Shown here piece by piece: positions 421 through 43,038 of a stretch of DNA of 55,689 nucleotides. The stretch is from the NCBI GenBank assembly GCA_013180605.1, contig QBUL01000187.1, positions 1 to 55,689 on the forward strand. The letters are read 5' to 3'. The DNA comes from Candidatus Methanophagaceae archaeon GoMg1 (lineage in GTDB: Archaea > Halobacteriota > Syntropharchaeia > Alkanophagales > Methanospirareceae). Both the position numbers and the translations under genes were made by a program. Position 1 is the first letter of the stretch, and the number at the start of each line of letters is the position of its first letter. Below the pieces are notes generated by a model, which ran no database searches, was not told the origin of the DNA, and was given only the letters and a program-made list of their open reading frames with translations.

Positions 421-979
421 GCGCTTTTTCAGAATACTCAATCGATTTTTTATAAGACCCGATTTGACCATATAAAACCCCCAGAGAACCCAGCAAGTAT
501 CCGCTTATTTCAGCCTCAGTTGAAAGCTCGGAAAGCAGTTTCTCTTTTAGCTCTATACTTCGCTTGATATCTTCCAGAGATTTATATTCAGTCTCTAAGG
601 CGAATTCAACCAGAGCAGGTCTGCGCTCTTCAGTCATAGATACTTCCATAAATTCTACCACACGGTTTCTGAACGCGAAGAAGTCAGGCGCCTCAAGACT
701 GATACGAGCAAGTTCCTCTTCTCTTACCCAGAATACCGCCTTGACATGGTGCTCAACAAGTTCTTCACGCTTAAAATTCAAATACTGAAGCGCTTCAGGA
801 AATCCTTTATCCATATTACGAACGGAAAAAACATAGTTGCCGGAGTTCATTGAAGAAAAAAAGGCGGGCAGGTCTTTATTGCCCCCTGCGTCCACGCTTA
901 CAACTTCGAGCCCCTGCTCAACCAGCGCTCTCTTAAGCGATTTCTCAACGTCACTTCGCAAAAATTCACTCAGATACAT
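1..979 (-). CDS. TPR-repeat protein, runs off the window edge
   Basis: Manual translation from ATG 979 (MYLSEFLRSDVEK...APDFFAFRNRVVEF) leads into 40-aa repeats such as LGQVERAIKYYEQALAIAKEIGDRRGEG.ALGNL. Absent from the ORF track because no stop lies in the window. Confidence 0.85.
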   Translation of the reverse strand, partial: MYLSEFLRSDVEKSLKRALVEQGLEVVSVDAGGNKDLPAFFSSMNSGNYVFSVRNMDKGFPEALQYLNFKREELVEHHVKAVFWVREEELARISLEAPDFFAFRNRVVEFMEVSMTEERRPALVEFALETEYKSLEDIKRSIELKEKLLSELSTEAEISGYLLGSLGVLYGQIGSYKKSIEYSEKALKIAQAIGDRRGEGAGLGSLGNAYYLLGQVERAIEYYKQALAIAKEIGDRRNEGAWLGSLGNAYSDLGQEERAIKYYEQALAISKEIGDRRGEGNALGNLGLAYYVLGQVERAIKYYEQALAIAKEIGDRRGEGTALGNL

Positions 980-1027
980 GGCATATCCAAAAAATCAAGA
1001 AAAATCATAGAAAAATTGGAATATCCT

Positions 1028-1606
1028 CTAAACTCTTCCTAAACAACGTTTTATAAACCTTTCAGATGGATATTCGTGAATAGTCGTAGCGATTATTTCC
1101 CCTGCCCCGTATTCAGACACAACCAAAATCGCTTTCGTATTCTCCTCTTTATCGCCTTTTATTCTTAATATTACTTCTCCTTCTATCCCCACCTCGTCGA
1201 AGTAACCATCGCACATGCATTCTCCTTTTTCCACTATCACTGCTACTTTATGCTCCTTTACCACCTCTATTCTTACCCTCCTCTTCTCCATCACGTATTC
1301 GGTTTTTATGGGAAGCCAATTGTATGCGTCCTTGTTTGAAAGCGCACCGGATACTAAAAGAACACCTCCCGCCTTTACAAAATCTTTTATACACTCACTA
1401 TTTGCTCTGAGTCCCTTTAGTATTCCCGAATATCGTTCGTTCCCAAATCCCGCTGGCACTATCACTAACTTATAGCCGGTAAATGAAAAGAACGGAGCAA
1501 ACAACAGATTCGGCGTTATTAGCTCACAATCAAACCCCTTATCGGTGAGGTGCTGCATAAAAGGCGTATCTTTATCCCATAATAACGCTATCTCTCTTTC
1601 CTTCAC
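1028..1606 (-). CDS. Hypothetical protein, class I glutamine amidotransferase-like fold
   Basis: LVIVPAGFG, FVKAGGVLLVSG and ATTIHEYP motifs; 4-nt overlap with the upstream gene. Confidence 0.6.
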   Translation of the reverse strand: MKEREIALLWDKDTPFMQHLTDKGFDCELITPNLLFAPFFSFTGYKLVIVPAGFGNERYSGILKGLRANSECIKDFVKAGGVLLVSGALSNKDAYNWLPIKTEYVMEKRRVRIEVVKEHKVAVIVEKGECMCDGYFDEVGIEGEVILRIKGDKEENTKAILVVSEYGAGEIIATTIHEYPSERFIKRCLGRV

Positions 1607-1968
1607 TTTTTCTTTAATACCACTATATCGGGTCGTGGTGAAGCTTTAGAGCCTGCAAATTCCTTTTTGCATCGTTCGCATAATTCCCTCGCCGTTAGCG
1701 TGACCACTTCTTCGCTTCCCGGCAGCTTTCTCGCATATACAAACTCCGGCTCTACGCCAACGGATTTGCTTATCTCCTCTAATACCGCACTTATCTTCTC
1801 CCTGAACACGTCTACATCGTCATATTGCAATCCACGCAGGTCTGCTGCGAAGCCGGTACAGCCACACACCATCCCGAATACTTTTGCTTCCGGCACGAAT
1901 ATGTTCCCTATCAGATGCCTCAGCTCTTCTTCAAGCTTTTTCCTGCCTTCACTTATCTCTTCCTTCAT
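1603..1968 (-). CDS. Small Cys-containing conserved protein (possibly DUF5402-like)
   Basis: CGC and LCERC motifs; lies downstream of the U32 pair in the same orientation. Confidence 0.55.
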   Translation of the reverse strand: MKEEISEGRKKLEEELRHLIGNIFVPEAKVFGMVCGCTGFAADLRGLQYDDVDVFREKISAVLEEISKSVGVEPEFVYARKLPGSEEVVTLTARELCERCKKEFAGSKASPRPDIVVLKKK

Positions 1969-1990
1969 TTTTCTGCAAGATATTTTATTG

Positions 1991-2040
1991 CATATAAAGT
2001 ATAACTTCCTTCTATTTAAGACGCGGATTTACACGGATTT
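1991..2040. repeat. Single arm of a GxxExxY-associated repeat element with conserved flank
   Basis: cataTaaagtataacttcc..tatttaagacgcggatttacacggattt, matching copies at 13211, 20251 and 22467. Confidence 0.8.
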
Positions 2041-2050
2041 ATTTATTTTG

Positions 2051-3070
2051 TCATTTCACCACGCTCAAAACCTTACTCGTCAGCTCATCGCAATACCTGC
2101 ATTCATCGCATATCTTTTTGCACCGTTTCCATTGTTTTATGCTGCCATCCAGGAGTTTGTTATCCAGGTAAAACGTATAGCTGAGTTCGGAAGGGCAATC
2201 AAGAAGTTCAAGCAGGTTTCCTTTAAATGACCGTCGTGAGTATGCCGTCATGCAATTTATTATCCAGTTCACCGTGTTTGCTCTACCCGCAATCTTGAAT
2301 TTTTCTATCCCTATCTCCTCGTATTCCTTCATATCCTCGGGTCTTATCCACGGCGACCTTATGATCTCCGATGGCTGTCGCATGCGAATGGATATGCACT
2401 TATCGAAATAGTAGTCGCCAAAGGTATTCAGTGGCTGGTTCCGTGCATTCAAAAAAGAAGATCGGGGGGTGGTTATGTGCGAGAAGAGGTTGAAATGCGC
2501 ATACCGAAACGGGCACTTATAAAGACAGGCTTCGTTCACAAGTATTCGGATGTCGCAATTCACGGCTCTCAGTATTGCTTCTAATGTTTGGAAGTCCCTG
2601 TTGATGTTCGTGTCCACCGTGATTGTATCGGCACCCAGGTCCTCAAAGAATTCAGCACGCTGCGGTGAATCTACATGCGCTACACACGAAACAACCGTCT
2701 CCATCGGGAACTCCTTCAAAAGCTCAATTAGATACGGCTCTGCCACGGTAATACCATCAACATCCGCCTTATTCAATTCCCCAAAGTACCACTCAAACAC
2801 CTTATAACCCTCGAAGGTAAGGTGATAACCGCCCAGGCATGATGCATTTATCACAATGTTCATCTTTATGTCGTGCTGATGCGCATAAGCAGTCTGCTCT
2901 TTTATCTCTTCAATAACCGCTCCGTGGAGCATCGCTCTTCCGCTGCCTACCACTTCTGGAGAGCCCGCCATGTAAACCTCATATACGTCTTTCAAACCCG
3001 CTGCTTCTTTTGTTTCTATTATCTCCTTCAATGCGGGGAAATGACCCGGATGCGGGACTATCACTTTCAT
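2051..3070 (-). CDS. U32 family Fe-S protein (UbiU/UbiV/TrhP-like hydroxylase), paralog 2
   Basis: NEACLYKCPFRYAH, WIRPED and FKIAGR motifs; C-terminal CKKICDEC..C. Confidence 0.85.
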   Translation of the reverse strand: MKVIVPHPGHFPALKEIIETKEAAGLKDVYEVYMAGSPEVVGSGRAMLHGAVIEEIKEQTAYAHQHDIKMNIVINASCLGGYHLTFEGYKVFEWYFGELNKADVDGITVAEPYLIELLKEFPMETVVSCVAHVDSPQRAEFFEDLGADTITVDTNINRDFQTLEAILRAVNCDIRILVNEACLYKCPFRYAHFNLFSHITTPRSSFLNARNQPLNTFGDYYFDKCISIRMRQPSEIIRSPWIRPEDMKEYEEIGIEKFKIAGRANTVNWIINCMTAYSRRSFKGNLLELLDCPSELSYTFYLDNKLLDGSIKQWKRCKKICDECRYCDELTSKVLSVVK

Positions 3071-4074
3071 TTGATACTGGTCAATACCTCCTGTGTAAGT
3101 TTATCACAATATCCACATTCGTTACAGATTTTTTTACAGTTCTTCCATTGTTCTATGCTCCCCTCAAGCTTTCCGTTATCCACGTAAAACACGAACCTTA
3201 GCATTTGAGGGCAGTCCAGGAGTTCAAGCAAGTTCCCCTTGAACGACCTGTGAGAATACGCCTTCATGCACTCTATTATCCAGTTCACCGTTTTTGTCCT
3301 CCCGGAAAGCTTGAAGCTCTTTATCCCTATCGCTTCGTATTCCTTCACATCTTCGGGTCTTATCCACGGGGACTTTATTATCTGCGTGGGGTCTCTCAGA
3401 CGGATGTTTATGCATTTATCGAAATAGAAGTCGGGTGCGAATAGAGGAGAGCGAGGTTGGTTTAAACTGCTGAGATGCGAGGCGAGATTGTAGTGAAAAT
3501 ACCTGAAAGGACACCGGTAAAGGCAGCCTTCGTTCACTATTACCCTCACGTCACAGTTAACCGCTTTTACTATTGCTCTCAACAGCGGGAAATGACGGTT
3601 TATGTTCGTGTCTACCGTTATCACATCAGCCCCAAGGTCTTCAAAGAACTTAGCACGCTGTGGCGCATCAACATAAGACAAAACCGATACAATGGTTTTC
3701 ATCGGGAAATCGCGCAGAAGCTCCACGAGATAGGGCTCTGCCACTATAACACCGTCAACGTCTGCTTTATTCAACTCGCTGAAATACCACTTGAACATCT
3801 TATAGCCCTCGAAGGTCAGATGATGGCCCCCGAGACACGTGGAATTCATTACGATATTCATTTTTATATCGTGCTGATGCGCATATTCGGTTTGTTCCCT
3901 TATCTCATCAATAAGCGGTGCATGCAGTACTCCTCTTCCGCTTCCCATTACTTCCGGCGAGCCGCCCATGAACACCTCTTCCACTTCCTCTAATCCTTCT
4001 TCCAACTCTTTTGCTTCTATTATCTCCTTCAATGCGGAAAAATGCCCGGGATGCGGAACCATTAGCCTTGTCAT
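3067..4074 (-). CDS. U32 family Fe-S protein, paralog 1
   Basis: NEGCLYRCPFR and FKLSGR motifs. Start moved to MTRLMVPHPGH (4074) by alignment with the paralog; the longer track ORF reads through a repeat. Confidence 0.85.
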   Translation of the reverse strand: MTRLMVPHPGHFSALKEIIEAKELEEGLEEVEEVFMGGSPEVMGSGRGVLHAPLIDEIREQTEYAHQHDIKMNIVMNSTCLGGHHLTFEGYKMFKWYFSELNKADVDGVIVAEPYLVELLRDFPMKTIVSVLSYVDAPQRAKFFEDLGADVITVDTNINRHFPLLRAIVKAVNCDVRVIVNEGCLYRCPFRYFHYNLASHLSSLNQPRSPLFAPDFYFDKCINIRLRDPTQIIKSPWIRPEDVKEYEAIGIKSFKLSGRTKTVNWIIECMKAYSHRSFKGNLLELLDCPQMLRFVFYVDNGKLEGSIEQWKNCKKICNECGYCDKLTQEVLTSIK

Positions 4075-4128
4075 CGGTCTATTAAGAATATCAGTAGTTC
4101 TATAAAAATCATTTAAATTTTTTTCTTT

Positions 4129-4302
4129 TAGCACAAACCTTTTCTTAAGAAGAAAAGCTTTACCAAAAGAAGATGGAAAACTTTCTTTCACAAAGAAAGT
4201 TTTATCAACAACTTTTTTACCTTCGGTAAAAACCTTGACTAAAAATATTTCCATGTTTTTTCTTTTAGCACAGGTTTTCTTTTTTACAAAAAGAAAAAGT
4301 GT
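4129..4302. repeat. AT-rich dispersed repeat, copy 1
   Basis: About 4200-4301 is the reverse complement of about 52947-53050; a partial copy lies at 55060-55106. Confidence 0.85.
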
Positions 4303-4303
4303 T

Positions 4304-5023
4304 ATGGCAAAACTATTTCGAGAGACGCAAGGTGTAATCCCGGCGTGTGACGTAACCACGATAGAAGAATTCCAAACGTTAATTGAGCGGACATGCTCGA
4401 TTGAAGGAATCGTGGGATATAAGGTAGGGTGCACACTTGCGTTACGCTACGGATTACCGAAATTGGCGGAGATAGCAGCAGAGCAGACCGACTTGCCTGT
4501 GATATATGACCATCAAAAGGCAGGCACGGACATACCGGCGATGGGGGCTAAATTCGCAGAGGTGTGCGCAAAAGCAGGTGTAAAAGTCGTTATTATTTTC
4601 CCGATGGCGGGTCCTGCCACCGAGAAAGCGTTTATCGAAGCCGCATTTAAAAACGGGTTGGTTCCCTGGGTGGGCGGTGAAATGACACATGAGAAGTACC
4701 TGCATAGAGAAGGGGGATTTATTAACGCTGATGCACCAAAAAAGATATACAAAATCGCAGCAGAATGCGGTGTGGAATATTTCGTAGCTCCTGGAAGCAA
4801 ACCCGGTATTGTTGCGGAATACAATCGTTTCCTATCGGAAATCGTGAACGAGCCGAAGTTTTGCATGCCCGGGATTGGTTCACAGGGTGGTGCGATAAGC
4901 AAAGCTTTTGAAGCAGTAAAAGGTAAAGAAGCGTATGCTATTATAGGGTCTGCGATATACAAAAGCAGGGATATAGAGGGTGCGGCGAGAAGGTTTTGCA
5001 AGGAGGCAATGGCGTTCTTATAA
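4304..5023 (+). CDS. pyrF: Orotidine 5'-phosphate decarboxylase
   Basis: IPACD, GYKVG, YDHQKAGTDIP, PGIGSQGG and IIGSAIY motifs; start at MAKLF. Confidence 0.8.
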   Translation: MAKLFRETQGVIPACDVTTIEEFQTLIERTCSIEGIVGYKVGCTLALRYGLPKLAEIAAEQTDLPVIYDHQKAGTDIPAMGAKFAEVCAKAGVKVVIIFPMAGPATEKAFIEAAFKNGLVPWVGGEMTHEKYLHREGGFINADAPKKIYKIAAECGVEYFVAPGSKPGIVAEYNRFLSEIVNEPKFCMPGIGSQGGAISKAFEAVKGKEAYAIIGSAIYKSRDIEGAARRFCKEAMAFL

Positions 5024-5212
5024 TTGCTCACAATCGGATGAGGGGGGAGGATGGTTGAGCAATTAACTTGACAATCTCTCATTTCAAAATCTTTTTGTCT
5101 CTCCGGGAATATCCGAAAATCGCCCATCTTCTCGTAAAATCCGCTCCCTTCATTATCTGTAATATCTCTCGCATCTTCTCCGCATTTGAAAGGCAAGTTT
5201 CAATTAAAAAAG

Positions 5213-5315
5213 GGTAGTGCCCTAATTAAGAATAGTTAATGAAAAGAAATCTTGCCATGTCCATAGGTGGTCTGTTAACCCTTCTAACATTGCAGGTGAA
5301 GTTCTTCTTTTGAAC
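5213..5315 (-). mobile_element. IS1-family transposase C-terminal remnant with terminal repeat
   Basis: Minus frame KRRTSPAMLEGLTDHLWTWQDFFSLTILN* followed by GGCACTACC (GGTAGTG-type end). Confidence 0.6.
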
Positions 5316-5349
5316 TCATTTATGAAATCCCGAGAGATTTAAAGAAAAA

Positions 5350-5477
5350 TCATTTTTTGGTAAACAACTTCCTTATCCCCGCGCCAACCGTCTCAACCTG
5401 ATGCTTGCCTATCTTCTCTCTGCTCTCTTTCAAGAACTGGATACCTCTTTTGTATTCCTCAACCCATTCATTTGCAA
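5350..5477 (-). pseudogene. ilvC: Duplicated 3' fragment of ilvC
   Basis: Close match to 21439-21566 (ANEWVEEYK...HQVETVGA.IRKLF.KK*). Confidence 0.85.
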
Positions 5478-6032
5478 CCCCACGTTTTCAGAGACCATTA
5501 AAATTGAGTGCGGACGCTGCTGTTCATAGCAGTACAAAATACATAGGTGGTCACGCAGATATTTTAGGAGGTGTCATTGTCGGAAGAAAAAAGCAGATGA
5601 GCGGTTTTGGTGGTATGATCTCTTTTGGAATCAAGGGCGGAGGCACAGTCTAAAAATCTAGTGATTTATCACCGCGGAGAGCGCAGAGTACGCAGAGTTT
5701 TAAGATGATTTTATCCTTGTTGAGTTTCCTGATGTCTCCGCGTGCTCTGCGGTGAAATTCAAGGATATAGAGATTTCACTAGAAAATTCGACAGTGCCAA
5801 GGGCGGAATAGAGGAGGGACGCAAGCTCATGAACCGCGTTGAACGGTGTACTTTAGCGGTTAGCCTCGGGTACGTTGATACCGTAATACAACATCCGGCA
5901 TCTATGACCCACGCGAATATACCCCGAAAGGTCAGGTTGAAGATTGGGATAACCGATGATTTGGTGCGACTCTCTGTCGGTATAGAAGAGCCAGAAGACA
6001 TAATAGCAGATCTGGAACAAACATTAAGCTAA
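5471..6032 (+). pseudogene. Cys/Met metabolism PLP enzyme (methionine gamma-lyase type), fragmented
   Basis: FATP.FQRPL, HSSTKYIGGHAD, FGGMISF, LAVSLG, HPASMTH and VRLSVGIE motifs; 5' end lost, internal deletion, MITE insertion. Confidence 0.85.
5642..5798. mobile_element. 157-bp MITE (IS256-like ends)
   Basis: 23-bp imperfect TIR (18/23) GGCACAGTCTAAAAATCTAGTGA; 9-bp TSD AAGGGCGGA at 5633-5641 and 5799-5807. Removal restores [10 protein letters not shown]. Confidence 0.9.
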
Positions 6033-10793: not shown

Positions 10794-10906
10794 TGTATAT
10801 ACGAAGTACTTCAGATATACTGCCAAAAGGGAAGGATATACGAAATTCGTATATACCTCCAAATTGGAATGATATGCGATGTATTGCGGATATAACTAAG
10901 TTAAAC
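10794..10906 (+). other. attI-like site, type A copy 1
   Basis: Repeated (G/T)ATAT(A/G)C-type boxes ending in GTTAAAC at 10900; aligns with 37926-38005 on the minus strand. Confidence 0.65.
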
Positions 10907-10998
10907 TCAATCGAGAAAGAGGGCTAAAATTAAATGGGGGACAAAAATTAGAAAATGTAAACAAAGTTATATAAATTAGAAAATAATCTTAATTTATT

Positions 10999-12132
10999 AT
11001 GAAAGATGCAGATGAATTTTATAAACCTGCGATTAAGCAAAAAGTATTAATTGATGGAATTGCAGGCGAAACAATAGCAAAAGGCTCTACAGGAAAAATA
11101 ATTCAAAAAGGATTTCTGACTTCAGTTCAAACTAATTTTGCTTCTATTGCTAACAATCTAACATCTACTTTTTATTCGTATAATTCAAAAGATTTAGTTA
11201 ATAGTTCATTAATTATTATCAAAAAGGATAATACTGCAAAAATATACTCTAAATTTCCTTTATCTATGTTAATGAGAGCTAAGAAAGATATTAAAAAGGG
11301 AACATTAGTAAATAGAGAAGATATTTTTGATATTGCAAAACTTGAATTTAAGGATTCTGTTTACGAAGTTAACATTGAAGCTGACGATAAAATCATCTTT
11401 ATTTTTAGGATGGATTGGAAATTCGGCATATTTTTTGACTTCACTAAAAAAATAGATTCGGGAAAATTGAAAGAAGAGTTAGGTTATTGTTATAAGCGTT
11501 TATTTTTTTATGATTTGTACGCATTTCTTGAAAATGAAAATTATTTCAATGATTTAAGAGCGGATGGATGGTTTCCATTTATAAGAATTATTGGAAGAAA
11601 TTTTGATACGATAATGCAATACTACAAAGAAGACAAAAAACATGACTTCCAAATTGATGAATTAATCTCAGAATTCACAAAAGAAAAAATTGAATCATTT
11701 ACACAATATTGGTGGAAAAAACAATTATTTAATGATAAGAAAGGAATCATTGAAGCAGGAATTAATTCTTTTTTACAAAATGATAAAAATGGATTTATTA
11801 CATGTTTACATACACTTTATCCTCAAATAGAAGGAATTATGGGTTTTGATTATTTTAATGTCAATGGCAAAAAACCTTCATTTAGAGAACTTATAGACCA
11901 TATAAAACAAAAAGCAGAGTCTAAATTTAACACAGTTTCATCAACAGGATTTCCTACGGAATTTTATGAATATCTAAAAAAGACTGTTTTTGAAAATTTT
12001 GATCTTGCAACAGGAAAGGTTGATTTATCTAGACACACAACATCCCATGGATATGCTAATGCAGATGATTTTAACAAGGCGAAAGCACTCCAAGCAATTC
12101 TAATTTTAGACCAAATATACTTCTATTTGTAA
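10999..12132 (+). CDS. Cassette-borne protein with C-terminal HEPN-like motif
   Basis: IEG...SRHTTSHG (Rx4H); AT-rich; bounded by a GTT core and attC. Confidence 0.65.
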   Translation: MKDADEFYKPAIKQKVLIDGIAGETIAKGSTGKIIQKGFLTSVQTNFASIANNLTSTFYSYNSKDLVNSSLIIIKKDNTAKIYSKFPLSMLMRAKKDIKKGTLVNREDIFDIAKLEFKDSVYEVNIEADDKIIFIFRMDWKFGIFFDFTKKIDSGKLKEELGYCYKRLFFYDLYAFLENENYFNDLRADGWFPFIRIIGRNFDTIMQYYKEDKKHDFQIDELISEFTKEKIESFTQYWWKKQLFNDKKGIIEAGINSFLQNDKNGFITCLHTLYPQIEGIMGFDYFNVNGKKPSFRELIDHIKQKAESKFNTVSSTGFPTEFYEYLKKTVFENFDLATGKVDLSRHTTSHGYANADDFNKAKALQAILILDQIYFYL

Positions 12133-12252
12133 TTTTTGTCCCATCGATTTAGTTCTTTATGTATCGCATTCGCTCTTTAGATAGAACGCCCTCTTTCTCG
12201 ACTTTGATTTTTCCCTTCGGGACGTTGCACTAAAAATCAATCCTAACGGAGA

Positions 12253-12342
12253 GTTCAACAGGGATTATGAGGTTACGAAGTCTTGCAGACTTCTCCACCC
12301 AAATTCGCCTAAGGCGAACTTCTCATAATCCTGATGTTAAGC
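12253..12342 (+). other. attC-like site
   Basis: GTTCAAC (RYYYAAC) to GTTAAGC (GTTRRRY); arms GGATTATGAG and CTCATAATCC. Confidence 0.75.
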
Positions 12343-12508
12343 AAAATTAAAAAGATACAGGAAGAATCAACGTATGAACTCAAAAATCATCATTACTTTG
12401 TCAGCTTTTGTTTACAGGCTTTGTATTTTTTTGATTTAACTTTTGCACTTTGCACTTTTCATTTTGCGTTGTCTGCTCAAAAATCCACCGATTTTTTAGC
12501 AGATACGG

Positions 12509-14950: not shown

Positions 14951-15215
14951 TTAGTTGTCCAGCGGGCTGCGGACAACGAGAACGTTCCTCGTAGCTACAG
15001 GGGTACAGATCATAGTGTCAAGTTTTGATGACTCAGGAGTTTCTGAATCGTCCTGATGACATAACCATTTTCCAATAAATGTGTCGGGAAGCTATGTCTT
15101 AGTGTATGAACAAAGGCATTTTTCGTAATGCCTGCTTTTTCAACCACGGTTTTGGAAGCCATCTGCGGTGATGCCAAGTGTACATGGTAACGGCTGACCG
15201 TAAGGAATTTTAATG
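14951..15215 (-). pseudogene. intI: Integron integrase C-terminal remnant
   Basis: [41 protein letters not shown], then frameshift to [21 protein letters not shown]. The catalytic Tyr position reads Cys and the N-terminus is missing. Confidence 0.88.
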
Positions 15216-15351
15216 GTAAAAAAGGATAAAAGCCTCCTGTTTTATGTAATAAAAGTAATAAAAGACGTAGGTGGACATAGAGCACGAGATGAGTTTATGA
15301 TAGTCTTAAGAGGTATTGCCAAATTAATTGCTACAGTTATTTATATGCAAG

Positions 15352-33968: not shown

Positions 33969-34034
33969 ATGATTCTAAGAGGACAGAAATGAATGAATGA
34001 ATGGAATAAAGAAATAAAGGCAACGAGGTGGAAA

Positions 34035-34331
34035 ATGGACAAAAAACTTGAAGAAATGATAAATACCATCAAAGCAAATAAGAACTTCCTGGAGGAGGAG
34101 TATAAGGTAAAAGAGATAGGTGTGTTCGGCTCTTTTGTACGCGGTGAGCAAAAGAGGAGGAGTGACGTGGATGTCCTTGCGGACTTTTATGAAGTGCCTG
34201 ACCTATTTAACTTCATCAGCCTTGAACGGTATCTCCAAAGGATTTTGAAGAAAAAAGTTGACCTCGTAAGAAAGCCGGTAGTGAGGAAAGAGCGGAAGAA
34301 AAGAATCTTGAGCGAGACGGTGTATGTATGA
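34035..34331 (+). CDS. MNT nucleotidyltransferase antitoxin (MntA-like)
   Basis: FGSFVRGEQ..SDVDV and KVDLV motifs. Confidence 0.88.
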   Translation: MDKKLEEMINTIKANKNFLEEEYKVKEIGVFGSFVRGEQKRRSDVDVLADFYEVPDLFNFISLERYLQRILKKKVDLVRKPVVRKERKKRILSETVYV

Positions 34332-34530: not shown

Positions 34531-35337
34531 ATGTCCGGTTATAAAGACAAAATACTGTTCGCAAAAAATCCTAATGAATACATAAACGACTCACAGCGAG
34601 CACGAGCAACCAGTTTCTATTCCTCTATCTGTGCGACTTATGGGAAAACAAACCTTGAATCATTAATGAAAACAAAGAGAAAAGGGAAAAAATATCCTGA
34701 CCCATTGGCTGATTTACCGATAGCTTGCCACAAGGATTTTGGCGATTATAATAAAAGAAGGGCAGAGCTCTTTGAGAAAGGGAGAAAATGGTTCGATGGT
34801 AGAGTTGCTAACTGGGCAAAAAATCCTGAAATCCCTGAGCTCAACTTTCCTTCGCTCAAAGTGAAATATCCAGAAGGCAAGAAGTTCGAATTCGGTAATA
34901 CCTCACTTCGATTCAGTAAACCTCTGTTTCATGGCATAGAGTTCTCACGCGTGGGTTGGGTATTTTATACGATTGTGGAGCACGAAACCGAGAAATTTAT
35001 CCATTCTTCTGACCTTGACGGTCCTATAATCGAGGATTATGCGCAGCAAATAATCCATGAGAATCCTCAGGTGCTTATCCTGGATGGTCCTATGACCTAC
35101 ATGTTTGGCTATTTGCTGAACCGGATTAATTTAAACCGGGCAGTGGAGAATGCCGCAGAAATTGTGCGTGAAATTGATGCGGAATTGATTATTTACGACC
35201 ATCACTTGCCAAGAGATAGAAAATTTCGCGAAAGGACTGAAAAGGTGTGGAACACAGCAAAGGAAGCGAAGAAGAAAGTTATGACTGCGGCGGAATTTTT
35301 GGGTAAGGAACCGGTTGTGCTTTCAGTAGGGTCTTAA
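34531..35337 (+). CDS. MBL-fold hydrolase (UPF0282-like), probably 5'-truncated
   Basis: KNPNEYINDSQR.R, PLFHG, SSDLDGP and DHHL.RD motifs; N-terminal MBL motif absent. Confidence 0.65.
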   Translation: MSGYKDKILFAKNPNEYINDSQRARATSFYSSICATYGKTNLESLMKTKRKGKKYPDPLADLPIACHKDFGDYNKRRAELFEKGRKWFDGRVANWAKNPEIPELNFPSLKVKYPEGKKFEFGNTSLRFSKPLFHGIEFSRVGWVFYTIVEHETEKFIHSSDLDGPIIEDYAQQIIHENPQVLILDGPMTYMFGYLLNRINLNRAVENAAEIVREIDAELIIYDHHLPRDRKFRERTEKVWNTAKEAKKKVMTAAEFLGKEPVVLSVGS

Positions 35338-35369
35338 TAGCTGTGCTCGAAAGCGGTGTTGGTTCTGGG

Positions 35370-35457
35370 TTATAACATTTTGAGTATATCTAAAGTTCCG
35401 AGCGAAGCGAGGATTTTGGGTGAGGGCGTAGCCCGAACCTGATATACTCTGTTGGCC
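35370..35457 (-). other. attC-like site (GATATAC type)
   Basis: Minus strand GGCCAAC-AGAGTATATC ... GATATACTCAAAAT-GTTATAA. Confidence 0.75.
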
Positions 35458-35508
35458 GACCCGAAGGGCAAGGGAGCGATAGCGACCGCAGAGTCGTGGA
35501 CGAAAGTT

Positions 35509-36273
35509 TTACGGTTCTTCATCTAATATCTTTATCCTACTTCCTAAGTCTTTTAAATACCCTTCAGCTTTTTTCTCATCTTGTGGTAGATTTTCCGGGT
35601 CTAATGGGAATATATCTGTCAATAATTTCGCTAATCCCGATGCTTGATATCCTTTTTGAACAAAAACCGCAACATTTTTACCTGGTCCACTCTTAAATGC
35701 CATACCTATCTCATTTCCAATCCAGCCGACCTCACCTCCTTTATCAAAAACATGAGCGGTCAAAATCTGGATAATGCAATCAGAATCACGGATTGCTTGA
35801 TCTATTTTGTCAATCGTTGGTTTAACTTTGTAAATTTCTTTTTGCCATATGGTATTAAATCCTGCATTCTCAGCTCTATTCCTAACCCATCTAATCAATT
35901 GATTTGCACCATCATCGAAAGAAGCACTAATGAATGCAATAGGCTGTTTTGCCTTTTTTCTTTTTTCTATGTATACATCTTTTTCTTCTCTTTCCCTTGC
36001 TTTGAGAATATCTATACCATCTGCTGTTATTTTTAGACCAAGAGAGAGGTCAAATGGAAACGAACCAAATGGTAATGGGATTTCTACTCTAACTTCTTTC
36101 TTCTCTAAAAGCTTATGATCCTCTAGATATTTTATTTCTCTGTCAAACTTATCTGGGTTTTTATTTGATAAAAGGGCCAACAGACTGCTTTTTCTCAACG
36201 ATTTTGGATATTTTCCGTCGAGAAGGTTAAGCATTTCATAGTGATATTCAGTCAGTTTCATTTGTACCACCAA
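35509..36273 (-). CDS. Cassette-borne wHTH plus TIR/nucleotide-hydrolase-like protein
   Basis: N-terminal LKITADGID wHTH; AFISASF, AIRDSDCIIQIL and WIGNEIGMA motifs. Confidence 0.7.
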   Translation of the reverse strand: MVVQMKLTEYHYEMLNLLDGKYPKSLRKSSLLALLSNKNPDKFDREIKYLEDHKLLEKKEVRVEIPLPFGSFPFDLSLGLKITADGIDILKAREREEKDVYIEKRKKAKQPIAFISASFDDGANQLIRWVRNRAENAGFNTIWQKEIYKVKPTIDKIDQAIRDSDCIIQILTAHVFDKGGEVGWIGNEIGMAFKSGPGKNVAVFVQKGYQASGLAKLLTDIFPLDPENLPQDEKKAEGYLKDLGSRIKILDEEP

Positions 36274-36318
36274 AGTTTTGAATTACTTTTTTTGAAGATT
36301 TTCTTCGTCCACGATTTC

Positions 36319-36403
36319 GGCTACCGTTTTTGGTATATCCGAAGTTTTTGCCGATAGGCAAAAATTTGGGCGAACGACATGAGCCAGATATACCATGTTA
36401 TAC
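36319..36403 (-). other. attC-like site (GATATAC type)
   Basis: Minus strand GTATAAC-ATGGTATATC ... GATATACCAAAAAC-GGTAGCC (GTT core reads GGT). Confidence 0.72.
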
Positions 36404-36509
36404 GCCCCCGCTAGGGACAAGGAGCGGAGCGACGAAGAGTCGTGAGCAAAAGGCCATTTTAACTTACGAAGCATCTATTTTTTGGTGCGTATCTGCTTTT
36501 ATCTGGGCA

Positions 36510-36596
36510 ATACCCTGTGGCTTGCCACAGGGTCGCAGCAGTAGTGGTTGGTATATGGATATTGATACCCTGCGGCTTGCCGCAGGGTTCTTCATT
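36510..36596. mobile_element. Twin-palindrome miniature element (IS200/IS605- or REP-like)
   Basis: ACCCTGTGGCTTGCCACAGGGT and ACCCTGCGGCTTGCCGCAGGGT, 55 bp apart. Confidence 0.7.
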
Positions 36597-36622
36597 GGAA
36601 GATCCTCCTCTCGCGTTTTTTA

Positions 36623-37852
36623 TTATCTTACATAAAGAAATTTATCGTATTGCTTAAACAAATCTGGATATTGTTGATAGAAGAGGTACTTATTGAACTG
36701 AATTCCCAAGAATGTCTTTTGAAGTGGCAATCCCTTTTGACTCCTGAGCATTGCTAGGAGTTTAACGTTGGGTATCTGCGTTCTTTTATATATGGATCGC
36801 ATCCGCATTTCTAGATTTGAACTAGCCTTTTGATTATCTAGTCGGGAGTTATATCCGCTTTCCGAACCTTTCGGGTATATAGTAAAGTCAGGCAATGGGC
36901 ATCGTAGCCATGGTTCCATACAGAAGGAAGAGTCGAAATCCTTTCGTTTTACGGTTCTAATAATTTTTTTTCCTATCGAAGGAATGGGTATAAGCGAAGG
37001 TAATAGGTTTATGATATTTTGAGTATATATTGCAACGGAAATGGACGTGGAAACCACCGCAATGTTCTCCCATTGCTTTCTAATTGTTTGCTTCACCTTC
37101 TCACTAATAAGGGGCATTTCCTCTATAAGGTTTCTTGAGGTCCGTGCTCCGTTATTCCAAGCTCGTGCTAATTTCTCGCGATACGTATGCATTTCAGAGA
37201 TATCCTCTAGTTCAATAATCCTTTTGAACAGGTTTTGCTCAATTCTTTTTCGGAGACTCGGTATTAGAGTACAGGAGTCAGGAATATGAGAAAAAAACCA
37301 ATGTCCAAGTAATTCTCTTACTTTACGCACACTATAATTCCCCTCCAATCCTGGCTCGCGTAACGTTAGGGAAGATAACCATAAAGTAGTGTACGTTGGA
37401 AACACTAAACACGCTTCGAGTTCTACAGCGGTTCCCCATCTAGCGTAGGCCTCCAGTGTTACTCCAAAATCAAAACCAAACGGTATCACGTAGGAAAGCT
37501 CTTCATCCTCTAAAACACAAGGAAGCTCTTCTTTTAGGACGTCATACAAAGCACAATAAACACGGTTCTTTCTAGCTTGGCCTAACTCCCAGAATCTATC
37601 AGAGCAAAACTCTACAAACTCAAGGTTGCATATTTCCCTTGGTAGTGAAGATTCTGTTGACTCCGGGAATAATATAGACTCAAAACCATGGAAAATATGT
37701 AAATCTTGTAGATACTTTACACACAATCTTGCGTCTCTGGTTTTATCAATATTGTAATCCCCAGTATCAATTAGGTTATACCGAAGAAGAGGTCCGGCTT
37801 TCCGGTAATCTTTCATCAATCTTATTGGGATTGTGTTAAGTATTGCTCTCAT
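36623..37852 (-). CDS. Cassette-borne hypothetical protein (409 aa)
   Basis: Long ORF with ggggtgg SD; no family recognised. Confidence 0.7.
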   Translation of the reverse strand: MRAILNTIPIRLMKDYRKAGPLLRYNLIDTGDYNIDKTRDARLCVKYLQDLHIFHGFESILFPESTESSLPREICNLEFVEFCSDRFWELGQARKNRVYCALYDVLKEELPCVLEDEELSYVIPFGFDFGVTLEAYARWGTAVELEACLVFPTYTTLWLSSLTLREPGLEGNYSVRKVRELLGHWFFSHIPDSCTLIPSLRKRIEQNLFKRIIELEDISEMHTYREKLARAWNNGARTSRNLIEEMPLISEKVKQTIRKQWENIAVVSTSISVAIYTQNIINLLPSLIPIPSIGKKIIRTVKRKDFDSSFCMEPWLRCPLPDFTIYPKGSESGYNSRLDNQKASSNLEMRMRSIYKRTQIPNVKLLAMLRSQKGLPLQKTFLGIQFNKYLFYQQYPDLFKQYDKFLYVR

Positions 37853-37925
37853 GTATTACCACCCCTCAGTTACACTTCATTTCTATAACATTAACTTCTT
37901 TCCTAAGCCTTTTGCTCACGATTGC

Positions 37926-38005
37926 GTATAACGTCGGTATATCCGACATTAATGTCGCATATCCTCCCATTTTGGGGTTATATCCAAAACTTACTTCGTA
38001 GATCC
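37926..38005 (-). other. attI-like site, type A copy 2
   Basis: GGATATAACCCCAAAATGGGAGGATATGCGAC..CGGATATACCGAC-GTTATAC aligns with about 10850-10906. Confidence 0.65.
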
Positions 38006-38114
38006 CCCCCCCCTTTAGCAGACTGCTAACCCTCATCTCCTTCAGCCTCACTTTCAATATACGAATTCTTCATTATTAAACCTAACGGGCTTTTTATCCT
38101 TTCCCTTGACAATC

Positions 38115-38492
38115 TCATCGTGTTAATTTAACAGTGCCTTCTACAAAGTTCAGCACAAGCTCCTGACCCACTGCGGAAAGAAATTCCATACCAAGCAGCC
38201 AATCTCCTGGAATAAAACATGCCTCAACCTCAAAATCTTTTATAATCACCTTGCCCAAAAACACGGGTAACTCCACAATCTCACCAGTGGCTAATCTAAA
38301 AGTGTCATAATCCACCAATTCCAGTTCCATCTCCTCCAAAACTTCTCCGGGAATGGCTATTCCACCGTTAAAGCCACTGTCTATCGTTAATGTTTGATCA
38401 CCCTCTTCGCTGAAAATAAGATTCTCTCCTTCCACAAAAGCATTAAAGAAGGGAATAAAGTCGGTAATGCCCCCTTTTATTATGTTTTCCAT
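38115..38492 (-). CDS. Clan AA aspartic protease-like protein
   Basis: IDSGFNG and LLGMEFL motifs. Confidence 0.75.
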   Translation of the reverse strand: MENIIKGGITDFIPFFNAFVEGENLIFSEEGDQTLTIDSGFNGGIAIPGEVLEEMELELVDYDTFRLATGEIVELPVFLGKVIIKDFEVEACFIPGDWLLGMEFLSAVGQELVLNFVEGTVKLTR

Positions 38493-38770: not shown

Positions 38771-39967
38771 TTATTTCTCTATCACCATCTCCTCCACCGC
38801 AATTCCAAAATGCCGAGCCGTCTCCGTAACATGAACCATAACCTCATCACCCGCTTTCAAATCAACCACGGAAATCGGTTTCTTTTTATCCCTACCCACC
38901 AACTTTATCGTTTCCGCATTCTGAAGTATAATACTGCACTTCCTCTTCTCACCGCCACCTGTTTCCACTTCCAGTTCCGCTTCCACGAGCATAAGCGGTC
39001 GTTTCTCTATCTTCACCCTACCTACCACCGCTTTTCTCGCACTTCCTTCCGCATTCACAATCAACACGTCATCTCCAGACTTCAACTCCGACAAATATCT
39101 CGTCTTCTCACCCACTAATATGTAAGCATAAACGCCGCCCGCATTCACCCTGAACGGTCTCGCAGCTACGTAAGGACTCTCTTCTGATTCCGAATGCACC
39201 AAGAACAACGCAAAAGACTGCGACCCCACCAGCATTCCTTCTCCTAAAGTCATCAATGAGCAGGTGTCCACGCATACCCTATCCCCCATTTCAAGTTCTT
39301 TCACGTTTGTTATCTTCGCTGCAGAAAGAGTAATCTTACCCATTTCGCTCTCGTCACGTATCTCCACCGCTCTTTTTATCTCGGATACGTCATCAGTATC
39401 AAGAAGAACGCCATCGGCACCGTATTCAAGCGTTTCAAACGCCGTCCTCGCCTCTTCTGCACTCTGCACCCCCGCTATCACCTTCGCTTCCTTCTTTTGC
39501 AGTTCCGCAATTATATTCTCCAGCGGGATTATCTTCCAATCTTTTCCTATCACAATCACGTAATCACAGTAATCCGCAATATTCACGGCAAATTGCTCAT
39601 ATTCCTTGCCTCTTATCTCCACATACACTGCACCTGCATTAACTTTACTGTCCGAAGTCCTTCTCAACGCACCTAAGACACTTGACTCACCTACTTCCGT
39701 CGGAATGGACTTCGTTCCATCTCCTTCACTTCCCTTACCATAAACGGCAACGTCCGCTTCTACTTTTTCTGTTGATTCATCGGATGCAAACGCAGCTATT
39801 TTTATGCGTCCTAACTCCTTCACCTTCTCAATGTCTGCTTCCTCAACAAGCACTCCGTCCACGCCAGATTCCAAACCTGCAGTAATCCGGGACTTCTTCT
39901 CGCCCCACGTGCCCGCTTCATCATCCGCTTTTATCCATATCTCTTTTCGCTTTTGCTTTTCTTTCAT
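38771..39967 (-). CDS. aroB': 3-dehydroquinate synthase II
   Basis: DWKIIPLEN, GDRVCVDTCS, RPFRVNAG and LQNAET motifs. Confidence 0.93.
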   Translation of the reverse strand: MKEKQKRKEIWIKADDEAGTWGEKKSRITAGLESGVDGVLVEEADIEKVKELGRIKIAAFASDESTEKVEADVAVYGKGSEGDGTKSIPTEVGESSVLGALRRTSDSKVNAGAVYVEIRGKEYEQFAVNIADYCDYVIVIGKDWKIIPLENIIAELQKKEAKVIAGVQSAEEARTAFETLEYGADGVLLDTDDVSEIKRAVEIRDESEMGKITLSAAKITNVKELEMGDRVCVDTCSLMTLGEGMLVGSQSFALFLVHSESEESPYVAARPFRVNAGGVYAYILVGEKTRYLSELKSGDDVLIVNAEGSARKAVVGRVKIEKRPLMLVEAELEVETGGGEKRKCSIILQNAETIKLVGRDKKKPISVVDLKAGDEVMVHVTETARHFGIAVEEMVIEK

Positions 39968-41151: not shown

Positions 41152-43038
41152 TTAGACCAATCTCAACGTCTCTAAATTCATCGGCGCTACCGTCTCTATA
41201 TTAAACCTCTTGTGTATTCCACTTGCTAATGCCACACATTTGCTGCTCTCGCCGTGCATACACATTATCTTTGACGGTAGTGGCCGTATCCCTCTTACGT
41301 ATTCAATCAATTGATTGCGGTCTGAATGCCCGGAGAACCCATCTATTGTCCTCGTTTCCAGGTTTATTTTTATGTTTTTCATTTTTCCCTCGTTTGGAAG
41401 CTGTATCTCACTCCAGCCTTTCTGTATTCTCCTCCCAAGCGTTCCTTCTCCTTGATAACCAACAAAGATAAGTTTGTTCTTTTCGTCGCCTGCAAGCCCT
41501 TTCAGGTATTCTAACACAGGACCGCCATTTAACATCCCCGCAGTAGCAAGTACGATAAACGGCTCTTTCTCGTCTATTATTCCTCTCCTCTTCTCTGCAT
41601 CGTCCACCGGTACAAAAACGTCTGATAAGAATGGATTTTCACCCTGGAATATCGAATTTTTTAGATTTCGATTGAGGTACTCGGGATATGCCGTATGGAT
41701 TGCAGTCGCCTCCCAGATCATACCATCTAAATACACGGGAACCTCCAAATGCATTCTTTCCAGTGCTATCATTACTTCCTGCGAACGACCAACCGCAAAA
41801 GCGGGTATTATTGTTTTACCTCCCTTCTTTATCGTTTCCTTTATCTCTTCATTTAAATGGTGTTCCGCTTCTTTTCTCGACGGTTGCAGGTCATTCATAC
41901 CGCCGTATGTAGACTCCATGACCATGGCATCAACCCGTGGGAACCCATTAAAAGCAGGGTCAAAGAGAAACGTTCGCTCGTACTTTATGTCTCCCGTGAA
42001 TGCGAAGTTGTAAAGACCATTGCCTATGTTAAAATATGCGCTTGCAGAGCCCAGGATGTGTCCCGCATTGTAAAAAGTTAGCTTCACGTCCGGCGATATG
42101 TCTGTTACGTCCCCGTATTTCAGTGGGATGGTGTGCCTTATCGCATCTCGTATCAAGGATGATTTGTACGGGACTTTCTTCCCCTCTCTTGCCGACACTT
42201 CTATATAGTCAAGCAGAAGAAGAGCCATAAGGGCTCTCGTTGGCTCTGTCATGTATATAGGACCGTCATAACCATATAAGAGCAGAAGAGGCACTAAACC
42301 CGAATGGTCAAGATGCGCATGCGTTATTACTACCGCATCTATATCCTTTATCGGTGATGCTTCAGGAACGTATAAATAAGGCACCCCTTCCGAGCCCACA
42401 CTCACCCCGCAATCTATTAAAACCCGCGTCTCCGGCGTAGAAAGCATAAACGCATTTCTCCCTACCTCCCGACACCCGCCCAACGCGGTTATACGCAGCC
42501 ATTCATCTTCTTTTGTCTTATCTCGGTATATCATCCGCCCTACTTTTTTTACAAAGTTCTTCCTGAATTCGCTCTCCTCTCTTAGGTATCTCCTTATGCT
42601 TTTTATTGTTGTGGATTGTATCGGCGGTGCCCTGATAACATTGGGCCGCCACCCTATCACCCTTGCCACTTCTCGTAGTGTCGCTCCATGCGTGCCTATT
42701 ACCAACCCCGGCTTTTCCGCCTCTATTATCGCCTCCGCCTTGTCCATATCAAAATAAATGTCTTTTATCCCTCCTTCATCAGGTATAATGTCATAAATCA
42801 CCTTGGACGCTTTTTCCGGCTCCATCAGCATGTCACTATTTGGTCTGACGGAAATCCTTTTCTTTAATTCCCTCGCCAGTGTCCTCACTATGGCACCATC
42901 ATCAGCGAATTTCTGTGTGTCTTCCGTATATACTACAAGTTCCGGTCCTTCAAACTCCACACCGCTAATGCTTACCTCAGCCGGTAATAACCCCTTTATT
43001 CGGCGCTTTAATTCTGAAAGCGTTTCTTCTGCTGGCAT
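41152..43038 (-). CDS. fttA: Beta-CASP ribonuclease aCPSF1 / termination factor FttA
   Basis: N-terminal KH domains; THAHLDH, AGHILGS, ESTYG and FSGHSD motifs. Confidence 0.95.

Follow-up and report, generated by a model that had tools for sequence, protein, structure and literature searches.

Integron-type gene cassettes are present in an archaeal chromosome, within the 55,689-nt stretch of Candidatus Methanophagaceae archaeon GoMg1 analysed here (contig QBUL01000187.1; the window). Positions 35370–38098 constitute a decayed integron-like array that has lost its integrase and retains, read along the minus strand, a recombinase-gene remnant, an attI-like site and two cassettes (A and B), each with a terminal attC-like site (Table 1). 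The two ends of each cassette are complementary to one another beyond the R box of the attC-like site, as the original prediction had claimed; its four arm coordinates are exact, and 15 of 15 bases pair in cassette A and 11 of 11 in cassette B. On balance we favour, with limited confidence, an enlarged and branched att module in which the outer stem formed by these arms would arise only in the excised circle and would stabilise the folded site for insertion at attI. The array extent first proposed, 35370–37932, holds for the cassettes and falls short at the upstream boundary, since the attI-like site and the recombinase remnant reach ~38098.

Cassette anatomy and the att-site family

Each cassette begins with the TT of the conserved G/TT crossover (the slash marks the cut), and its last base is the G of the attC-like site that it carries. 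The crossover base of the attI-like site is probably the G at 37932. A cassette that is cut at G/TT splits the recombination module across the payload, which leaves ~25 nt at the 5´ end and ~130 nt at the 3´ end. From the outside inwards, the module consists of an outer stem (8–15 bp), a junction, an R stem of 8–10 bp (GTTANNNG / CNNNTAAC), an asymmetric spacer (1–3 nt after R´´ versus 5–7 nt before R´), an L stem (10–12 bp) and a two-hairpin loop. At the junction, the linker MAA (where M is A or C; MAAT if the first T of the arm is included) is unpaired and lies opposite CTCT and one or two small hairpins. This geometry is constant, also in the relatives: the 5´ end reads G/TTA-NNNG-MAA-arm, with the arm directly after GTTANNNG-MAA, and the 3´ end reads arm´-CTCT-hairpin(s)-CNNNTAAC.

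The start of cassette A, GTTATACGC (37932–37924), matches its end, GCGTATAAC (36405–36397), perfectly at 9 of 9 positions, and the start of cassette B, GGTAGCCGA (36325–36317), matches TCGGCCAAC (35459–35451) at 7 of 9. The core site of cassette A is composed of R´´ (36405–36397), L´´ (GTATATC, 36393–36387), a variable loop with two hairpins, L´ (GATATAC, 36339–36333) and R´ (GGTAGCCGA, 36325–36317); that of cassette B contains R´´ (35459–35451), L´´ (35447–35441), L´ (35390–35384) and an R´ that reads GTTATAA from 35376. The GC hairpin predicted between the R box and the arm on the 3´ side is found in both cassettes as a 34-nt insert (36439–36406 and 35493–35460) with one or two short hairpins.

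To follow the site family, a covariance model (CM), R1, was built from three full sites. The model recovers 25 sites on 19 contigs of the host genome, a 2.34-Mb metagenome-assembled genome (MAG) that is 86% complete, and finds sites in 47 of the 61 genomes searched (host included) and in 34 of the 36 genomes of the family. We examined 171 sites (68 + 81 + 22 matches in loci) out of ~650 matches across genomes. They have the anatomy of attC sites, which is an R´´-L´´...L´-R´ imperfect inverted repeat in which AAC and GTT are conserved and the stems covary; the L stems vary between sites yet pair within each site. The bases after G/TT match the R´´ of the next site over at least 7 nt in 45 of 82 cassettes and the R´´ of their own site in 13 of 151 cases, and it is by this match to the next site instead of the own one that cassettes cut at G/TT are classically recognised. 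The att sites are spread round the chromosome as many small arrays and single sites (in G041, G018, G038 and others), for example as 11 sites at seven places in a 10-contig genome.

An attI-like sequence follows the recombinase genes of the relatives G055, G041 and G034, where (as in others) recombinase gene, attI-like site and cassettes succeed one another on one strand; in the window the recombinase gene itself is lost. The attI-like site recurs in ~20 loci and always ends in ...GATATACC(N3)GTT. Window positions 38098–37921 share 88% identity over 178 nt with G055 (L060 4624–4798), a segment that comprises the last codons of the recombinase open reading frame (ORF) and the DNA following it, and a tblastn search with the intact recombinase of a relative found no further piece near the array. 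The window also contains a second mini-array, in which the 5´ arm TCGAGAAAGAGGGC (10911–10924) is complementary at 14 of 14 positions to the 3´ arm´ (12188–12201), which lies 58 nt upstream of the R´´ end.

Table 1. Features of the array (listed in reading order) and the second mini-array, in window positions.
Feature	Positions	Strand	Basis or note
Recombinase remnant, 3´ end of the lost array-adjacent tyrosine recombinase gene (reads ...KSPLGLIMKNS...)	38011..38098	-	88% identity with G055
attI-like site (site 1), short GATATAC-type inverted repeats, ending in ...GGATATACCGAC followed by GTTATACGC	37932..38010	-	alignment with G055, G041, G034
Cassette A, first bases TT behind the attI G, last base the G in the R´ box of its attC	36325..37931	-	R-box match 9; CM match 36305–36447, 133 bits
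Cassette A 5´ outer arm TCGTGAGCAAAAGGC, after R´-derived GTTATACGC and a CAA linker	37907..37921	-	15/15 complementary to 36440–36454
Cassette A payload ORF, 409 aa	36623..37852	-	no match in Pfam or PADLOC
Cassette A 3´ outer arm´ GCCTTTTGCTCACGA	36440..36454	-	pairs 15/15 with 37921–37907
Cassette A 34-nt insert between arm´ and R´´, CTCT first, short GC hairpin(s)	36406..36439	-	sequence, folding
Cassette A core attC-like site (site 2; full site 36454–36317)	36317..36405	-	attC anatomy
Cassette B	35376..36324	-	CM match 35365–35501, 124.7 bits
Cassette B 5´ outer arm TCGTGGACGAA	36304..36314	-	11/11 complementary to 35494–35504
Cassette B payload ORF, 254 aa, TIR domain	35509..36273	-	Pfam TIR_2, E 3.8e-07, 31.1 bits versus cut-off 28; PADLOC none
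Cassette B 3´ outer arm´ TTCGTCCACGA, begins 4 nt past the ORF stop codon	35494..35504	-	sequence
Cassette B 34-nt insert, CTCT and two small hairpins	35460..35493	-	sequence, folding
Cassette B core attC-like site (site 3; full site 35504–35370), last site of the array	35370..35459	-	attC anatomy
Second mini-array: attI-like site ending at G10900, one cassette, attC-like site 12225–12356	10810..12356	+	CM 38.1 bits

Pairing between the two ends of a cassette

Exact arms are present in four cassettes of the host genome, with lengths of 15, 11, 14 and 14 bp; one of them, on contig C177, has a perfect 14-bp arm (TTCGTTCATGGCGC), and its arm´ overlaps the stop codon of the payload. To determine how specific the pairing is, 101 cassettes were collected as adjacent att pairs from the host genome and ~20 relatives, of which 16 begin at attI-like sites, and were given a mismatch-tolerant pairing score anchored just past the linker, with non-cognate start/end pairs and permutations as controls. 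A score of at least 8 is reached by 32 of the 101 cognate pairs versus 208 of 10,100 non-cognate pairs (2.1%), and a score of at least 14 by 9 of 101 versus 12 of 10,100. None of 20,000 permutations reaches 32, the highest being 9. A test of exact runs gave 13 of 47 cognate versus 28 of 2,162 non-cognate pairs in a first set and 18 of 82 versus 81 of 6,642 in a second. Most of the strong non-cognate pairs are of the same module type in a different genome. The pairing is thus specific to the cassette, as had been proposed, and arms from unrelated cassettes do not pair equally well.

The 32 cassettes that score at least 8 carry 29 distinct arm strings. The insert is present in 23 of them; in the other nine, the pairing runs on past the R box to give a stem of ~17–20 bp. 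When the arm´ upstream of a site is compared with the arm downstream of the same site, only 4 of 151 sites score at least 8 and none reaches 10, with a mean of 4.56 that equals the background. The high cognate pairing, together with background pairing of the same-site flanks, indicates that the outer arms join the two ends of one cassette and not the two sides of a repeat.

Junctions circularised in silico were folded as single-stranded DNA with DNA parameters and compared with the array context and with junctions made from the starts of the other 46 cassettes. They fold into one long branched stem, which bears out in silico the stem anticipated for the excised circle. The junction of cassette A has a folding energy of -40.3 (top strand) and -43.4 (bottom strand) kcal/mol versus -29.3 and -32.7 in the array context and -26.9 (standard deviation, sd, 2.8) with non-cognate starts. 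The corresponding values are -31.0, -19.2 and -20.5 (sd 2.1) for cassette B and -42.8, -25.1 and -26.4 (sd 2.8) for C177. Relative to the array context, circularisation stabilises the fold by 11–18 kcal/mol, and the circular junctions lie 5–6 sd below the non-cognate ones. Across loci, 16 of 33 inserts fold as two hairpins and 16 as one (32 of 33 in all), and different insert stems interchange at the same position (GGTTGC/GCAACC, GGCTTCC/GGAAGCC and GCAACCC/GGGTTGC).

The module can be told apart from the payload. A module of the type found in cassette A (arms TCGTGAGCAAAAGG) bounds five cassettes, which measure 1536 nt in the window and 639, 1216, 1516 and 1078 nt in G004, G017, G035 and G038, respectively. 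The payloads of the window, G035 and G038, the three that were read, share no DNA homology and have unlike ORF sets. As the same arms surround differing payloads, they are part of the att module rather than of the gene. Long arms are also clustered near attI: a score of at least 14 is reached by 7 of the 16 first cassettes after attI-like sites versus 2 of 85 others (Fisher p = 2e-5, kin counted), and a score of at least 8 by 10 of 16 versus 22 of 85 (p = 0.007).

In the mechanism that we favour, the outer and R stems would adjoin only after excision, in a circular and probably single-stranded cassette. Together they would clamp the base of the hairpin and so offer the recombinase a stably folded site, and the clamped fold would favour insertion at attI. 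Once the cassette is inserted, the arms would be dispensable and could then decay. A more far-reaching version is put forward only tentatively. According to this version, a XerA-derived recombinase without the IntI domain may run an integron-like system, the true site of which would be a four-way-junction DNA of ~155–190 nt that is intact only in the circle; the outer stem, available only in the circle, would license insertion at attI, and att modules would be attached to new genes as whole units. Such a licence would explain the perfect arms in the attI-proximal cassette.

Several observations weigh against a working outer stem. Clear arms occur in only 32 of 101 cassettes, and no compensated change was seen within one module type; the A-type module instead shows uncompensated mismatches (two in G017 and one in G038). 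The same arms flank five cassettes of differing length and are thus possibly relics of module attachment. The enrichment in first cassettes counts kin, three of the seven long arms represent one module type, and the enrichment would also agree with simple decay by age. The hairpins of the insert are singly weak (mean z -1.28, with 11 of 33 below -2; -1.1 and -0.5 for cassettes A and B), and no consensus structure emerged when 25 of the 33 inserts were folded from a MAFFT alignment, which is not structure-aware. Eight rows had been dropped from that alignment (four apparently mis-anchored, one duplicate and three of atypical length or form), and the per-sequence folds were used instead. Only fragments, and no intact array-type recombinase gene, were found in the 86% complete host genome, and no circle junction was observed among the assembled metagenome contigs. 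A search of homologous payload pairs for compensatory arm changes yielded few pairs, which showed decay or rearrangement and nothing decisive.

The best-surviving alternative, which we consider doubtful, regards the arms as relics of cassette birth without a present role. A palindromic att module would have been attached to both sides of a payload, perhaps when a circle with an att site captured a gene or through copying from a hairpin template, and the arms would then have decayed. The sharp borders between module and payload in the five cassettes bounded by identical arms and attC, three of which hold payloads without DNA homology, agree with this account, as do the mismatches in G017 and G038 and the weakening of arms farther along arrays; the overlap of the C177 arm´ with a stop codon indicates that arm sequence can be payload-derived. 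However, the arms are nearly wholly different between module types whose cores are ~70–88% identical, yet 9 of 101 cassettes are perfect over 14–15 bp, and neither an empty nor an unsplit module was found in the host genome and the loci. The order of insertion, moreover, reflects recency of insertion and not of birth, so that the concentration of arms at attI better fits a role in mobility. A regular-expression scan of the genome and all loci for empty cassettes, in which the arms are brought together, gave 62 matches versus 63 with reversed arms as the control, and the sole true case is a known 306-nt cassette.

It is improbable that the att site is an RNA or transcription element, that is, a terminator plus promoter between genes in which the R´ box (GTTATAYG) would play the part of an archaeal TATA-like box and the arms would pair the transcript ends or be incidental. 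The R´ boxes are indeed TATA-like and lie 50–80 nt upstream of the cassette start codons, and TTCG-type loops are common among the hairpins. This account leaves unexplained why the bases after G/TT match the R´´ of the next site and not their own, as well as the recombinase/attI context; were R´ the TATA box, transcription would start only past the 5´ arm (+11 to +25). A comparison with Rfam gave no match in the whole window at the gathering score and none in 35200–38100 at E up to 1.

Less credible still are arms that represent the terminal inverted repeats of a small transposon or miniature inverted-repeat transposable element (MITE) carrying the att site. An att module read contiguously would have inverted repeats of 14–15 bp at its bounds, but the two flanks of a site, the arm´ before it and the arm behind it, are unmatched, as the same-site flank control given above shows, and no contiguous copy was found in the host genome or the loci. 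Unsplit MITE-like modules were rejected by that control. Chance complementarity, for which only the shared TCG...CGA motif beside the linkers would speak, has a negligible probability, as no permutation reaches the observed count and the non-cognate controls also refute it.

The recombinase and related systems

The recombinase next to the arrays was characterized in the relatives, where an intact example is the 351-aa protein at L047:1326–2381. The G041 protein, the one relative tested in this way, scores 253.3 bits with NF040815 (XerA_Arch; cut-off 220) and 237 bits with TIGR02249 (cut-off 265). It aligns end to end with Pyrococcus abyssi XerA (4a8e); the alignment to VchIntIA (2a3v) falls into two blocks, with 27 residues where VchIntIA has 69. 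None of the 61 genomes has a TIGR02249 match above the cut-off. Many of the matches in relatives fall into two parts of a single ORF and leave out model positions ~180–231, and others are single fragments; the best match in the host genome is 72 bits versus the cut-off of 265. By sequence, the array-adjacent recombinase of the relatives looks like XerA without the IntI-specific domain, with which bacterial IntI reads folded attC. For its single-strand pathway, IntI relies on a domain of its own (PMC4792948). The system is thus not a member of the integrons by the IntI-specific domain, although it probably works like an integron. Recombinase fragments in the host genome are located on C1, C105, C113 (15022–15222), C140 and C35, together with a 30%-identical XerA-like gene on C56. 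The fragment at window positions 15022–15222 (minus strand) lies near the second mini-array, on the opposite strand, and shows 44% identity over 70 aa.

Xer recombinases are known to act on folded single-stranded DNA, as in the attP hairpin of the CTX phage, which is used with XerCD, and archaea possess a XerA/dif system. By analogy, a hairpin in which two arms of ~11 bp imitate a duplex core site could serve as the substrate of a Xer-type enzyme that has no IntI domain, and the stem lengths observed here (an L stem of 10–12 bp and an R stem of 8–10 bp plus the extension) fit a Xer footprint. In contrast to CTX/XerCD and XerA/dif, the present system consists of cassette arrays with an attI-like site, not of a single phage site or chromosome dimer site, and it is known here from sequence.

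In the available text of Nivina et al. (2016; PMC5027507), the textbook attC (R´´-L´´...L´-R´, crossover in AAC/GTT) has a 7-nt R box, a spacer of 5–6 nt in each arm, extrahelical bases and a length of 57–141 bp. As that attC ends at the 7-nt R box, the outer arms fall outside it, which agrees with the original prediction. Like the bacterial integrons of that source, the archaeal arrays consist mostly of same-strand ORFs, each followed by an imperfect palindrome with conserved AAC...GTT; the L stems covary, each cassette opens with bases complementary to its own R´´, and an attI-like site stands at the head of the array. Unlike in bacterial integrons, the archaeal cassette ends pair 8–15 bp past the R stem of 8–10 bp, usually with CTCT and one or two hairpins between. 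The spacer (1–3 versus 5–7 nt) also differs from the textbook 5–6 nt per arm, with an archaeal L stem of 10–12 bp. The archaeal sites are scattered in many small arrays (19 contigs in the host genome), whereas the sedentary bacterial type typically forms a single large array, and the IntI-specific domain is missing from the associated recombinase.

Archaeal integrons have been reported from 75 MAGs, with six IntIs that carry the additional domain and with attI directly behind intI (Ghaly et al., 2022; PMC9668308). The folding of the archaeal attCs is described there as similar to that of bacterial ones, and the available part of that paper does not mention pairing past the R box. The arrays described here likewise derive from MAGs, are mostly without an integrase, have attI right after the integrase gene where one is present and hold defence-type cassette genes. 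They differ in that the reported IntIs, six only, carry the additional domain; here, sites occur in 34 of 36 family genomes. Neither pairing past the R box nor integrons in archaea of the anaerobic methanotrophic type are described in the portions available of the open-access papers and preprints searched (including PMC3053210, by term).

These observations bear on two open questions about integrons, namely how an attC becomes attached to a gene and how recombination of folded DNA arose from ordinary Xer recombination. With ~25 nt at the 5´ end, versus 6 nt in a textbook cassette, the att module has sufficient length to be followed on either side of the payload. If the outer stem is functional, the system would be a natural and testable case of structure-specific recombination by a simpler enzyme with a larger DNA fold. 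If the att module round the crossover is attached to new genes as a whole unit, as its presence at both ends of unrelated payloads would show, this would bear on the unsolved origin of cassettes and perhaps also on the form that integrons had ancestrally. The defence-type payloads (a TIR protein in the window and a Pycsar pair in a relative) suggest that, in uncultured archaea that oxidise or produce methane, immunity genes may be shuffled by this system.

Population data, payloads and neighbouring genes

The sequencing runs that contain the stretch, from marine-sediment and cold-seep metagenomes, were available as assembled contigs only, and no RNA run was listed. Depth is 14–81 over the payloads and hundreds to tens of thousands over the flanks and att sites; because the depths sum all organisms at least 90% alike, this contrast hints only softly at cassettes that vary and are rare variants. 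Joints from 36460 to 37904 (X2; two contigs, side 25) and from 36454 to 37904 (X4) would bypass payload A between its arms, and others run from 35498 to 37904–37909 and from 35380 to 37921. None of these were counted, since their sides are short, the inner letters are not known and they may stem from other payloads or organisms. Contigs of three runs join 38092–38102 directly to position 38771, where the dehydroquinate synthase gene ends, and bypass ~670 nt with a 125-aa ORF (38115–38492), so that segment 38094–38770 is variable in the population.

The 3´ non-coding part of cassette A contains an element of two hairpins, CCCTGCGGCAAGCCGCAGGG and CCCTGTGGCAAGCCACAGGG, at a distance of 55 nt (36510–36590, minus strand). 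It shows a compensatory change from C-G to T-A, has a second copy in the genome (G000:C123:2412–2486) and has a very high metagenome depth. It is an indel, because contigs of two runs lack 36501–36593. The R´ box with the A-rich spacer upstream (AAAAC GTTATAYG; for example, 37932–37924 and 35376–35370) resembles an archaeal B recognition element (BRE)/TATA sequence. The motif CACGACTCT has 7 matches versus 6.85 expected and is uninformative.

PADLOC found no match for the cassette proteins of the window. The G035 cassette (L050 4257–5563), with arms as in cassette A, encodes a Pycsar-type pair (PycTM, 5.2e-27; PycC, 3.6e-56); a Pycsar cyclase with its effector makes an anti-phage system the payload of an archaeal cassette. 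On C177 (L010, G000:C177), genes of a kind typical for cassettes follow downstream of the cassette with the 14-bp arm (735–5713) and encode DUF1801, GyrI-like/Cass2 'integron-associated effector binding protein', glyoxalase/bleomycin-resistance-like, DUF3795 and DNA alkylation repair proteins; between sites 5753–5892 and 4182–4318, one cassette holds three genes.

McrA is present in the host genome, and the housekeeping neighbours of the array in a Pfam scan are archaeal, with 3-dehydroquinate synthase II at 38771–39967 and the termination factor FttA/aCPSF1 at 41152–43038. On the other side, a convergent ORF of 268 aa without a family (34531–35337) and site 3 belong to a segment (34558–35506) that is 83% identical over 972 nt to L014 (G029:C96), a locus from another genus at which both neighbours differ from those in the window. 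An ORF for an MNT-type nucleotidyltransferase (33993–34331) lies beside this convergent ORF.

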